Source of the DNA: Thermoplasmata archaeon
GTDB lineage: Archaea > Thermoplasmatota > Thermoplasmata > Lutacidiplasmatales > UBA184
Direction: 5' to 3'
DNA: 37,761 bases
Assembly (NCBI GenBank): GCA_030039715.1
Contig: JASHVA010000048.1
Span: forward strand, 1 to 37,761
Shown: piece by piece, positions 7,971 to 26,875 of the stretch
How the letters are laid out: each line of letters opens with the position of its first letter
How positions within the stretch are numbered: the first letter of the stretch is position 1
Made by a program: the position numbers and the translations under genes
The notes under the pieces: generated by a model
What the model saw: the letters and a program-made list of their open reading frames with translations, nothing else
The model's database searches: none
What the model was told of the DNA's origin: nothing

Positions 7971-8888
7971 TCAGCTCTTCGAAGCCGTGGCGCCCGCCCC
8001 CGGCAGCCGGGCGAGCACGGAGCGCATCACCCGGTCGCGCACGAGCGCGTCGTCGAGGACGGGCGTCCAGACCACGACGACGCCGTCCCAGGTCTGGGCG
8101 GAGATGTCGGTGACCTCGAGCCGGGGGGCCCGAGACCCGGGGTCGGGGAACGCCCTCCCGATCTCGGCGACGACCGACTCAACGACGGGGACCGGAACCG
8201 TCTGGGGGAACGTCATGTGGACCCGGTGCGCCTTCGGCACGCCCGGCGCCGGCTGCAGGACGAGCGCGCCGAGGACCACGGAGTTCGGCACCTTCGCGAT
8301 CCCTCCTGCGTCGAGCCGGAGGATCGTGTAGAGGAGCTCGACGTCCTCGACGACGCCGGCGTAGCTCGGGTACATCATCTCGTGCGGGTAGCTCGGCGCG
8401 AACGCGCCGTAGCTCGAGGAGATGAAGCTGACCCGGTCGCCCGGCCGGAACGGGTTCGCCAGCACGAGAAGGAGCCCGGCGAAGACGTTCGAAAGGACCG
8501 TCTGCGCCGCGAGACCCAGGATGATCCCCACGAAGGCGCTCCCGAGGAAGATCGACTCGGCCGAGACCCCGGCGAGGTCGAACAGGGCGAGGATCGCGAC
8601 GACGCCGATGATCAGGTTGAGGAAGATCCGGATCGTCGCGCCGTGCTGGAACTGGCCCCGGCGGCGAAGCACCTCGTTCGCGGCGCTCGTGAACGCGCTC
8701 GCGGTCGCGTACGCGACGAGGACGACCGCGCCGGCTTCGAGGAGCAGCACCTCCTCGTGGTTGAACGGACTGAGGAACCGCTCGTTGAACACCGTGAACA
8801 GTACGTAGAGCGCGGCGGCGAGGACCACCACGAGGATGAGGTTCCGGACGAGGGCTCGAATCGGCCGGGCCTCGGCGGGACGGGCCAT
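7971..8888 (-). CDS. mscS: Small-conductance mechanosensitive channel family protein
   Basis: TM3 GIILGLAAQTVLSNVFAG, PFRPGDRV and VPNS motifs. Confidence 0.92.
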   Translation of the reverse strand: MARPAEARPIRALVRNLILVVVLAAALYVLFTVFNERFLSPFNHEEVLLLEAGAVVLVAYATASAFTSAANEVLRRRGQFQHGATIRIFLNLIIGVVAILALFDLAGVSAESIFLGSAFVGIILGLAAQTVLSNVFAGLLLVLANPFRPGDRVSFISSSYGAFAPSYPHEMMYPSYAGVVEDVELLYTILRLDAGGIAKVPNSVVLGALVLQPAPGVPKAHRVHMTFPQTVPVPVVESVVAEIGRAFPDPGSRAPRLEVTDISAQTWDGVVVVWTPVLDDALVRDRVMRSVLARLPGAGATASKS

Positions 8889-25196: not shown

Positions 25197-26309
25197 GTGA
25201 AGATCGTGCATTCGGTGTTCCGGTATCTGCCCGTCTCGGGCGGGGCGACCCGGCTCGTCCAGCTCCTGGCCGAGGGGGCGGCCGCCCGCGGGCACGACGT
25301 GACGGTCGTAACGCAGGAGGAGCCGGGCGCGCCGAGCGAGGAGACGATCGCGGGAGTGAGGGTCCTCCGGGTCCCGATCCGCCGGGTCGGGAAGTTCCGC
25401 CTGCCGCGGGGATACCGCGCGCTGCTGCACCGGCTCGACGCCGACGTCTTCCAGCTGAACGGCAACCGGATTTGGAACGCAGACTTCTACCTGCCGTACG
25501 CGCGCTCGTTCGACTGGCCTCAGGCAATCATGCCGATGGGGTTCTACCACTACTGGATGCGCCGCGGCCTCCTCCGCTGGTTCTACTACGACCGGTACTT
25601 CGCCGGCCGGATCCGGGCGTTCGGCCGGTACCTCGCGCTCACCGGCGCGGAGCGAGAGCAGGTCGTCGGCTGGGGGTACCCGCCCGAGCGCGCCCGCGTC
25701 CTCCCGGTCGGCGTCGACCTCGAGGAGTTCGCCCGTTCCCCGGCCGACCCGGCCGCGCTGCGCTCGGCCTGGCGCCTCCCGGTCCGGCAGGTCGCGGTCT
25801 ATGCCGGCGGCCTCTACGACAACAAGCGCGTGGACCGACTGGTCCGAGCGGTCGCCGGGACCCGAGGGGAGTGGGGTCTGGTCGTCCTCGGACCGGACGT
25901 CCCGGGCCATCCGTACGACCGGGCCCATTGCGAGGCGCTCGCGCGAGAGCTGGGCGCGCCGGTGCGGTTCCTCGGGGCCGTCCCCCGGACGGAGCTCGTG
26001 ACGTCGTTCTTCGCGGCCGACGCCTACGTCCAGGCGAGCGCGTTCGAAGGGTTCGGCATCACGCTCGTCGAGGCGATGGCCACCGGCCGCCCGTTCGTCG
26101 CGTTCGACGCCGGGGTCGCCCGCGACGTCGCAGCCCGCGGAGCCGGGGTCGTCGTCTCGAGCGAGGAGGAGATGTCCCGCGCCCTCGTGGACCTACCGCG
26201 ACGCGCGCGGGAACGCGGGAGCGCCGCGCGGCTCGTCGCGCAGGACTACTCGGTCGCCCAGATGGTCGACCGGGCGCTCGAGCAGTACCGGGCGATCGCC
26301 CGGAACTAG
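25197..26309 (+). CDS. Glycosyltransferase family 4
   Basis: GTG start giving MKIVHSVFRYLPVSGGA; EGFGITLVEAMATG motif. Confidence 0.9.
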   Translation: MKIVHSVFRYLPVSGGATRLVQLLAEGAAARGHDVTVVTQEEPGAPSEETIAGVRVLRVPIRRVGKFRLPRGYRALLHRLDADVFQLNGNRIWNADFYLPYARSFDWPQAIMPMGFYHYWMRRGLLRWFYYDRYFAGRIRAFGRYLALTGAEREQVVGWGYPPERARVLPVGVDLEEFARSPADPAALRSAWRLPVRQVAVYAGGLYDNKRVDRLVRAVAGTRGEWGLVVLGPDVPGHPYDRAHCEALARELGAPVRFLGAVPRTELVTSFFAADAYVQASAFEGFGITLVEAMATGRPFVAFDAGVARDVAARGAGVVVSSEEEMSRALVDLPRRARERGSAARLVAQDYSVAQMVDRALEQYRAIARN

Positions 26310-26328
26310 CGCGGCCCGGGCGGCGGAA

Positions 26329-26436
26329 TGGGGCTGCCCGAATTTGAATCGGGGTCCCGAGCTCCCAAAGCTCGAAGGATGGACCAGTAGAGCGGACGGA
26401 GGAGCGTCCTCCGGTCCGTAGCTACCCCACAGCCCC
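26329..26436 (-). tRNA. tRNA-Pro(UGG) with a ~33-34 nt insertion (candidate intron) in the D-loop; CCA not encoded
   Basis: Acceptor stem GGGGCTG/CAGCCCC plus discriminator A; anticodon arm CGAGC-TT-TGG-GA-GCTCG; T arm CCCGA-TTCAAAT-TCGGG; D-loop TAGC...TGGTCCAT is interrupted; 108 nt in total. Confidence 0.92.
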
Positions 26437-26446
26437 ACATCCGCGG

Positions 26447-26875
26447 CTAGACCGCTTCCACCCGTTTGAGGGTTCGGCCGATGCGGCACTCCGCGGGCTC
26501 GGCCTCGACGCGCTCGATGCGGAAGCGCTGTTTCGCTGGCACGTTCGGGCTCGCGCAGACCCACCAGTTCGGGCAATCCAGACGGCGGCACGGGTACCGG
26601 GCGACCTCGACCGAGCTCCCGACGACCGCGCTCCGCGAGTCGACGACGAGCGCGCGCGCGACCGGCTTCACCTCCACGACGTGGGCCTCGGACTCCTGGA
26701 GGGCACACGGGTGCGTGATCGGCCGGACCTTGGTGACGGCGTAGTTCCGCCCGACGTCGAGCGTGAGGCAGGCGTGCCGGTACGGGCACGTGCGGCAGAC
26801 CGGCGCCCCGCCCTGGTAGATGAACTCGTACCCCTCGCGAGCCTCGGAACTCGCGATCAGCGTGATCTCGGGCAT
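26447..26875 (-). CDS. UPF0179 family protein
   Basis: ITLI...EFIY...CRTCPYRHAC..LDVGRNY...HPCAL pattern; 1 nt downstream of egsA. Confidence 0.85.
   Translation of the reverse strand: MPEITLIASSEAREGYEFIYQGGAPVCRTCPYRHACLTLDVGRNYAVTKVRPITHPCALQESEAHVVEVKPVARALVVDSRSAVVGSSVEVARYPCRRLDCPNWWVCASPNVPAKQRFRIERVEAEPAECRIGRTLKRVEAV

Follow-up and report, generated by a model that had tools for sequence, protein, structure and literature searches.

A probable 33-nt intron with a relaxed splice motif in the D-loop of the only tRNA-Pro(UGG) gene found in a Lutacidiplasmatales genome

The tRNA-Pro(UGG) gene of a Thermoplasmata archaeon (assembly GCA_030039715.1, order Lutacidiplasmatales) carries a hairpin in its D-loop, which raises the question whether this insert is cut out of the transcript, and by what cuts, or whether it stays in the mature tRNA or marks a gene that is dead. 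The gene lies on contig JASHVA010000048.1, of which positions 1 to 37,761, a stretch of 37,761 nucleotides (nt), were analysed as a whole and are called the window here. We put at about 0.8 the probability that this is a functional gene, the only one for tRNA-Pro(UGG), interrupted between U17 and U17a by a 33-nt intron that is excised by way of a relaxed splice motif of the kind cut by the splicing endonuclease EndA. In the strict form of that motif, the bulge-helix-bulge (BHB) or hBHBh', two 3-nt bulges beside the 4-bp central helix H are closed by an outer helix h (at least 2 bp) and an inner helix h', each cut falling 2 nt past an end of H. In the relaxed form, HBh' or bulge-helix-loop, one site lies in a canonical bulge enclosed by H and h', while the second adjoins H in a loop.

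The source is a metagenome-assembled genome (MAG) of 1.55 Mb in 214 contigs, 71% complete and 2.7% contaminated; it is labelled G000, and the window is its contig C151, with a G+C content of ~72%. Relatives' sequences and genomes carry L and G numbers, genera are labelled g and families f. The whole pre-tRNA gene is 108 nt long (26329..26436, minus strand), with G1 at 26436 and the discriminator A73 at 26329, and its minus strand reads exactly as the original prediction gave it. A 7-bp acceptor stem and U8 G9 are followed by GGGU, AG, the insert and UGGUCCA UCCU, then by the anticodon arm with loop CUUUGGGAG (anticodon UGG at 26365-26367, minus strand), a 4-nt variable region, a T arm with loop UUCAAAU and the discriminator A; CCA is not encoded. 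The 108 nt fold with a minimum free energy (MFE) of -58.4 kcal/mol (z = -4.16, none of 200 shuffles being as stable) into a predicted structure that holds the insert hairpin, an anticodon-stem helix, the T arm and an acceptor-stem helix.

That the interrupted copy is a pseudogene, or its insert an artefact of assembly, might be suspected from its rejection by tRNA finders and from so fragmented a MAG. Searched with the 108-nt query, however, 21 of 24 genomes of the same genus hold the gene at full length (1-108, 85-96% identity); in one more the copy is split at contig ends, and the remaining two genomes (62% and 67% complete) gave paralogues only. Across the order, matches at E <= 1e-12 occur in 166 of 186 genomes and, among the matches listed, 149 of 150 span 1-108, the exception ending at a contig end. 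These belong to genera g1, g19 and g20 and were assembled independently, several to near closure (1-7 contigs), so that an assembly error, one of the outcomes that the original prediction had allowed for, finds no backing here. The insert is present at the same place in genera g17 and g18 also. As for a second, uninterrupted UGG copy, which would have cast doubt on this one, none was found in any genome with the interrupted copy, the other matches being GGG and CGG isoacceptors at 74-83% identity. The exons are invariant while the hairpin varies by compensatory pairs, a pattern that speaks against decay, and we hold a dead or artefactual copy to be very improbable. As the only UGG copy found, and one so widely retained, the interrupted gene is therefore the sole tRNA-Pro(UGG) decoder and has been long maintained. 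Alignment row L004 (from G019) is from an unpublished genome and G179 and G180 are included in the order-wide counts; no statement here relies on them. Sequencing runs with DNA matching the locus are labelled peat metagenomes, and contigs from four of these runs over 26200-26600 overlap the insert with no joint. None has at least 31 nt on both sides of the intron, so these contigs are counted as no independent assembly test and the other assemblies are relied on instead.

The extent of the insert follows from comparison with genes that lack it. Alignment A1 sets 30 interrupted genes beside four uninterrupted ones (34 sequences), and its columns 1-15, through G15, are invariant in 34/34. In the interrupted genes G15 is followed by three variable nt, a hairpin with an invariant C-G as its closing pair, six nt and then UGG. 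The block UGGUCCAUCCU after the insert is invariant but for one position: 51-55 and 57-61 (UGGUC and AUCCU, numbered by the first sequence) do not vary, position 56 is at least 90% conserved, and the same letters stand in most uninterrupted orthologues. The helices of the cloverleaf are paired throughout (100%). Uninterrupted tRNA-Pro(UGG) genes occur in genus g15 (four genomes: L125, L126, L127 and L131) and in the sister family f3 (2/2: L024 and L025); they have G15, two pyrimidines and then UGGUCCAUCCU, which makes an 11-nt D-loop, AG-YU-UGGUCCA. Against these genes the intron is a precise indel.

Excision of 26387-26419 (minus strand, 33 nt, pre-tRNA positions 18-50) leaves C16 U17 joined to U17a G18 G19 and, again, an 11-nt D-loop. 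The D-arm so obtained is that of the uninterrupted f3 gene L024 and, except at position 20, that of Pro(GGG) and Pro(CGG) in the genome itself. The 5' exon (26420..26436, minus strand, tRNA positions 1-17) would then hold the acceptor 5' strand, U8, G9, the D-stem 5' strand and A14 G15 C16 U17, and the 58-nt 3' exon (26329..26386, minus strand) would run from U17a G18 G19 through A73. A genome-wide splicer was given BHB geometry only (four positions for H, three or more of them paired, a 3-nt triplet on either side, and an inner helix no shorter than 4 bp); it excised each candidate, and ARAGORN then judged the product. It recovered exactly 26387-26419, and together with the identity to orthologues this supports the junction after U17. 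ARAGORN calls tRNA-Pro(tgg) in 30/30 homologues with the insert removed and in 0/30 with it kept, and the window's own spliced sequence is called tRNA-Pro(tgg) with a score of 116.7.

Within the intron the inner helix h', found by folding and by covariation, is a 26-nt GC-rich hairpin (26393..26418, minus strand) in which CGGAC/GUCCG is stacked on GGAGGA/UCCUCC, with a 1-nt bulge and a 3-nt loop; there are five contiguous pairs beside the 5' bulge and six more beyond. Nine of the 11 pairs show changes on both sides, with none of 500 shuffles reaching the covariation score, and RNAalifold retains the hairpin over the 30 homologues, so the hairpin is under structural selection and the strong folding first claimed for the insert is borne out. 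Its closing pair (19-47) is C-G in 30/30. The 5' strand of H is made by exon nucleotides, GUAG (G12 U13 A14 G15; 26422..26425, minus strand), facing the intron's CUCU just 3' of the hairpin (26389..26392, minus strand) as G-C, A-U, a U.C mismatch and G.U. Pairs 15-48 and 14-49 are formed in 30/30, and 12-51 is paired in 30/30 as well (26 G.U, 4 G-C); 13-50 is paired in only five. The six nt after the hairpin read CUCUAY in 25/30 and CUACAA, CUACAU or CUAUAC in the other five, from g17, g18 and one g19 genome, where H is complete (4/4, GUAG/CUAC or GUAG/CUAU, directly after the hairpin). The BHB register is the MFE fold in one of these five perfect-H sequences, and in g17 and g18 a cut after the second nt of each triplet leaves a D-arm identical to that of g15, whose gene is uninterrupted.

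Between H and h' stands a 5' bulge of three nt in all 30 homologues (B1, C16 U17^A in the window, 26419..26421, minus strand; the caret marks the cut), and a cut after U17 would conform to canonical BHB geometry. The 3' splice-site triplet (B2, A C^U17a, 26386..26388, minus strand), whose first A is invariant in 30/30 sequences, would be cut before U17a. The strict motif is not what is seen, with 0 contiguous h pairs in Pro(UGG). What is seen is one canonical bulge between H and h' and another site that adjoins H in a loop, as in HBh', and to this extent the non-canonical intron with a relaxed bulge-helix-loop type motif that the original prediction proposed agrees with our results.

Several features of the precursor tell against excision at these sites. 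H has three of its four pairs, with a U.C mismatch and a G.U, in the window and in 25/30 homologues, and the 3' site is without an outer helix. In the 25 CUCUAY sequences there is also a competing register (M2), in which GUAG pairs with CUAY shifted by 2 nt and G11.U is added. This shifted helix has 91% of its cells paired, against 79% for H; it is the MFE fold of the window's own sequence, the enforced BHB register being less stable by 7.2 kcal/mol; and it buries the 3' splice site in a helix, with the 5' triplet opposite two unpaired bases. Finally, ARAGORN cannot separate the 33-nt from a 34-nt excision (means 117.4 and 117.7 over 30 sequences), so the choice of 33 nt rests on homology and on motif geometry. 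We infer that the shifted helix is a competing fold of the precursor that the enzyme must displace.

The same facts could be taken for an intron with other boundaries, whether by the 34-nt excision, by cuts placed on the shifted helix or by a symmetric UA^C...UA^C register that leaves a 13-nt D-loop; the shifted helix is after all the MFE fold, and ARAGORN accepts all the products in 30/30 (117.7 for 34 nt, 113.2 for the shifted helix, 103.2 for the 13-nt loop). The D-loop seen in orthologues and paralogues is, though, obtained by the 33-nt excision only. Five of the 30 homologues are unable to form the shifted helix, which leaves a 3x2 internal loop and no bulge, and cuts placed by it give a D-loop without G18 G19, one G of the pair being lost. 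In the symmetric register (UAGC/GCUC), pair 16-47 is broken in 3/30, the rows with A16, while 19-47 is invariant. The original prediction had taken out 34 nt (26388-26421, at 15/16), which leaves a 10-nt D-loop unlike the 11-nt loop of orthologues and paralogues. Its GGGU/GCUC helix, with a 6-nt 5' loop and a UA/C 3' bulge, is without comparative support and has no counterpart in the Arg(GCG) introns described below; the irregular site is the 3' one, and the 5' bulge is a clean 3 nt. It had also dismissed GUAG/CUAC, which is a real helix, directly after the hairpin, in g17, g18 and Arg(GCG), and which in the window is shifted by 2 nt as M2. We consider other boundaries unlikely, and the best-supported intron, judged by sequence comparison, is that of 33 nt at 26387-26419, between U17 and U17a.

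RNAalifold also offers a possible helix closing the 3' site, U8-A21, G9-C20b, G10-C20a and G11.U20, of 3-4 bp, which would leave a 5-nt bulge and involves near-invariant columns only. It comes from a third exon-intron pairing, of 8-11 with 57-60 and of 13-15 with 53-55. The columns of this pairing are almost wholly invariant, so we give it no weight beyond the hint of a closing helix.

Could the hairpin instead be kept, so that the mature tRNA-Pro(UGG) has an extra helical arm rising from the D-loop beside G18? Positions 17 and 17a are where D-loops vary in length, the hairpin is under structural selection and the genus has a weak splice motif. An intron would, however, be just as likely to show that selection on h'. 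The need to pair with G12-G15, nucleotides of the D-stem and D-loop, constrains the insert's 3' tail; such pairing, the hallmark of a BHB, cannot coexist with a folded D-arm. Sixteen other tRNA genes in the genome have inserts with complete BHB motifs. We know of no tRNA with an arm in the D-loop. The evidence favours splicing, as far as comparison of sequences can carry it, and a retained arm has in our estimate only a slim chance, even with the further point in its favour that EndA of the alpha'2 kind, to which we come below, is reported as narrow (PMC5829648, PMC6379350).

The course of splicing would then be as follows. In the precursor, G12-G15 would pair with the four intron nt just 3' of the GC-rich hairpin; the central helix H so formed would stack on h' and leave C16-U17-A looped out as the canonical 3-nt bulge of the 5' splice site. 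Two nt past H, in an unstructured stretch, would come the 3' cut, and since it lies outside a closed 3-nt bulge the motif is a relaxed HBh' (bulge-helix-loop). The lineage's two-unit alpha'2 EndA, presumably as the sole cutter, would cut both sites, and RtcB, which is present in the genome, would join the exons. The D-stem and the 11-nt D-loop with G18 G19 would form only after removal of the intron, which itself would have no function of its own.

It is at the enzyme that excision meets further objections. EndA (PF01974) was not found in the own genome, a miss that we ascribe to the 71% completeness, since 30/30 other genomes of the genus have the gene, at one locus each and mostly as two domain matches ~550 nt apart in one frame. 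The 354-aa EndA open reading frame (ORF) of G001 holds PF02778 twice and PF01974 twice, and 80/80 among the loci kept match 333-354 residues of this query. Its closest solved relatives are the fused Methanopyrus kandleri enzyme (5X89) and the Archaeoglobus fulgidus alpha'2 enzyme. Its catalytic unit (187-354) aligns with that of Methanocaldococcus jannaschii (1A79, 4-171) over 168/168 residues with gaps of 1-2 only, and in the sequence alignment the extra loop of the Aeropyrum pernix alpha subunit falls on gaps. By a specific loop (CSL/L1, ASL/L2 or L3) is meant here an insertion in the catalytic unit that bears a conserved Lys and confers broad specificity. By these alignments the EndA of the genus is of the two-unit alpha'2 type, without the Crenarchaea-type specific loop, and the Thermoplasma-type homodimer named in the original prediction appears to be right for the genus, with a single gene of two tandem units in those 30 genomes.

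Enzymes of this kind are described as exacting. The substrate of alpha4 and alpha'2 EndA is given as the strict hBHBh' motif (PMC3239211), a specific loop is linked to broad EndA specificity (PMC5829648, PMC6379350), and the Thermoplasma acidophilum enzyme is listed as 'narrow' (PMC6379350). Among the closest parallels to our gene is the pre-tRNA-Glu(UUC) of M. kandleri, which has a D-loop intron with a relaxed HBh' motif (Kaneta et al. 2018, PMC5829648). According to that report, the A. fulgidus alpha'2 enzyme cuts this intron poorly; in vitro it and the loop-less M. kandleri enzyme cut mainly the good bulge and removal is inefficient, and yet the mature tRNA-Glu exists in the cell (PMC5829648). 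Both cases are euryarchaeal D-loop introns with a relaxed HBh', one good bulge and an EndA without the specific loop. They differ in that the M. kandleri EndA is described as an (alpha-beta)2 heterotetramer, whereas here there is a single two-unit alpha'2 gene; in that tRNA-Glu has a canonical intron besides, whereas Pro(UGG) has the D-loop intron only, at 17/17a; and in that the M. kandleri splicing was seen by RNA-seq and in vitro (PMC5829648), whereas that of Pro(UGG) is predicted from sequence.

Set beside other archaea, the locus shares features with several systems. Non-canonical and multiple tRNA introns are described in Thermoproteales and other TACK lineages (Sugahara 2008 and Fujishima 2010, as cited in PMC4090602 and PMC8450103), and introns at many positions are given as typical of Thermoproteales, Thaumarchaeota, Nanoarchaeota and ARMAN (PMC4090602, PMC8450103, PMC3239211). 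As in Thermoproteales and TACK by these accounts, D- and T-arm introns with BHB or HBh'/hBH motifs occur here in many genes of a genome, with similar introns across tRNAs; theirs is an (alpha-beta)2 EndA with the Crenarchaea-specific loop, unlike the alpha'2 enzyme without it here. ARMAN-2 (Micrarchaeum) is reported to have introns at 53/54 and 59/60 and an epsilon2 EndA (Fujishima 2011, PMC3239211). It resembles our case in its non-canonical positions and in being a lineage near Euryarchaeota, and T-loop 59/60 is the commonest site in the present genome; in contrast, the ARMAN-2 EndA is a three-unit epsilon2 enzyme with a specific loop of its own, and we know of no D-loop intron described there. 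With the canonical hBHBh' intron at 37/38 the Pro(UGG) intron has in common the 4-bp helix, the 3-nt bulge geometry and presumed processing by EndA and RtcB; it differs in position and in the missing outer helix h at the 3' site.

What makes the Pro(UGG) intron interesting is that it clashes with the accepted rule on enzyme type. For Euryarchaeota whose enzyme is alpha4 or alpha2, introns are stated to occur in <10% of tRNA genes, all of them canonical (PMC4090602), and reviews describe the introns of alpha4 and alpha'2 Euryarchaeota as few, all at 37/38 and with a strict BHB, relaxed non-canonical introns being removed only by (alpha-beta)2 and epsilon2 EndA with a specific loop (PMC4090602, PMC5829648, PMC6379350). 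Relaxed HBh' D-loop introns are thus known; what is new is one in Pro(UGG) at 17/17a, in this lineage, and paired with an alpha'2 enzyme. We found no literature on tRNA introns in this order or phylum, where supplementary tRNA tables may exist; the description of Lutacidiplasmatales used tRNAscan-SE 2, and the word 'intron' is absent from its main text (PMC9287336). As the only decoder of its kind the gene is essential. It would depend on removal of an HBh' D-loop intron, and the interrupted gene is kept in >140 carrier species among those searched. Should the wider scenario set out further below be right, alpha'2 enzymes can process bulge-helix-loop sites in vivo, through an unrecognised feature of this EndA or through a helper, and the accepted link of EndA architecture or specific loops to intron diversity would not be general. 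The gene and its enzyme would be a natural substrate-enzyme pair for probing the reach of alpha'2 specificity.

A sister intron in the same genome bears on both the register and the origin. The BHB-only splicer found a tRNA-Arg(GCG) gene (G000 C94:8418-8523, minus strand) with a 31-nt D-loop intron (8476-8506) and a complete H (4/4). Its site is the Pro(UGG) site, after GGGUAG and 2 nt and before UGG, with the same exon letters. The gene was obtained from 27 of 28 relatives searched (L150-L177). With the own genome included, 29/29 Arg(GCG) sequences have a C-G-closed hairpin, CUAC or CUGC, two bases and UGG, and in all 29, g15 and f3 among them, H with GUAG is 4/4 in the proposed register. The two introns are alike in the 3-nt 5' bulge, the C-G-closed GC hairpin, the 4-nt partner of GUAG followed by two nt, and the lack of an outer helix; they differ in that H is 3/4 in 25/30 Pro sequences.

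The Pro(UGG) intron is seen only in g1 and g17-g20, whereas the Arg(GCG) intron is order-wide (f1, including g15, and f3). Since g15 has it, and f3 too in a form whose hairpin is A+U-rich, and neither has the Pro(UGG) intron, it is older and wider than the latter. The Pro(UGG) intron may thus, as a hypothesis from these sequences, derive from that of Arg(GCG). A BLAST cross-match of the Pro query with the Arg gene covers positions 6-46 at 81-85% identity in three genomes, and lends this weak support, because positions 6-46 are largely shared exon or structurally forced sequence. The g15 D-arm of uninterrupted Pro(UGG) is exactly that predicted for the spliced g17 and g18 gene. Judged from the sequences, the g15 state fits either precise loss of the intron there or its gain in the other genera. 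A wider scenario would have an order-wide burst of tRNA introns in these soil and peat Thermoplasmata, with D-loop introns that have no outer helix copied from Arg(GCG) to Pro(UGG) through the shared D-arm and the loop-less two-unit EndA kept throughout; we advance it tentatively, at a little under even odds.

Inserts of similar kind are common in this genome, as the original prediction had thought worth surveying, with ~13 of them outside the anticodon loop. A census of accepted ARAGORN calls and spliced genes gives ~43 tRNA genes, 19 of them interrupted, these figures being approximate; five ARAGORN calls scoring 100.3-103.6 were dropped as probably false, the genome being G+C-rich. Introns in the D- or T-loop interrupt about 30% of the tRNA genes. 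Six introns are at 37/38 (Met x2, Leu UAA, Glu UUC (or Arg UCG), Tyr and Trp). Three are in the D-loop (Pro UGG, Arg GCG and initiator Met), all without an outer helix (0 contiguous h pairs). Ten are in the T-loop (Ser GCU, Ser CGA x2, Ser GGA, Ala GGC, Arg UCU, Gly UCC, Asn GUU, Glu CUC and His GUG). The T-loop introns are 29-33 nt long, nine of them placed after A59 and that of His GUG at a neighbouring T-loop site. In the nine, the BHB is complete, with the T stem as its outer helix, and H has 3-4 pairs, the mismatch usually being a recurring A57.G; for His GUG H is 4/4, the only feature checked. The outer helix is 5-6 bp in 10 measured T-loop and 37/38 introns, made by the T stem or the anticodon stem, and for Ser(GGA) and Glu(CUC) the h strands are complementary. 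The T-loop introns lie in G000 at C101:2725-2755, C55:268-300, C156:11878-11910, C188:6079-6107, C188:12753-12785, C68:4620-4649 and C49:482-513, and further ones within C36:5930-6075, C38:11040-11200 and C136:7180-7400. The initiator-type tRNA-Met (A1-U72; G000 C135:1338-1440, minus strand) has a 28-nt intron (1391-1418) late in the D-loop, ~20a/21, with H 4/4 and a 3' site in a 3x3 internal loop, not a bulge.

Such genes escape the usual finders. Default ARAGORN reported 0 tRNAs across the window; with introns allowed in the anticodon loop it miscalled the locus as tRNA-Thr(GGU). Rfam gave 0 matches in the window at the gathering threshold and no tRNA match over 26200-26600 at E <= 10, and none of the 40 genome-wide matches to RF00005 is at the tRNA-Pro(UGG) locus. 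A weak Rfam match to cyano_tmRNA (26298-26362, minus strand; 12.8 bits, E = 0.22) was rejected, as it is just the T arm and acceptor end of tRNA-Pro(UGG) plus trailer. The T-loop-intron genes too are missed or scored low by both programs, which overlook Pro(UGG) and a dozen other genes in this genome. It follows that tRNA complements, and quality calls that count tRNAs by means of these programs, will be understated for such MAGs.

Some further tRNA genes of G000 deserve mention. There is one uninterrupted tRNA-Ser(CGA) gene (C55:1341-1428) beside the two T-loop-intron copies (introns C55:268-300 and C156:11878-11910), whose exons are identical and whose intron hairpins differ; the MAG may here combine variants from different strains, or the copies may be true paralogues. 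The tRNA-Trp(CCA) gene (C16:5438-5603, minus strand) has a 91-nt canonical intron with a perfect BHB. A C/D box sRNA is found inside the tRNA-Trp intron of other Euryarchaeota, and by analogy this one may hold a candidate. The tRNA-Gln(CUG) gene was counted as uninterrupted, since no convincing BHB came out of brute-force excision around C186.

Upstream of tRNA-Pro(UGG) lies a gene for a UPF0179-family protein of 142 aa (26447..26875, minus strand; Pfam PF03684, E = 6.8e-35). The upstream flanks are conserved in g1, g19 and g20. Its stop codon stands 10 nt ahead of the tRNA gene, so the promoter of the latter would overlap its last codons. An A/T-richer stretch ~27-33 nt upstream of tRNA-Pro(UGG) falls within these codons, and the promoter is probably located there.

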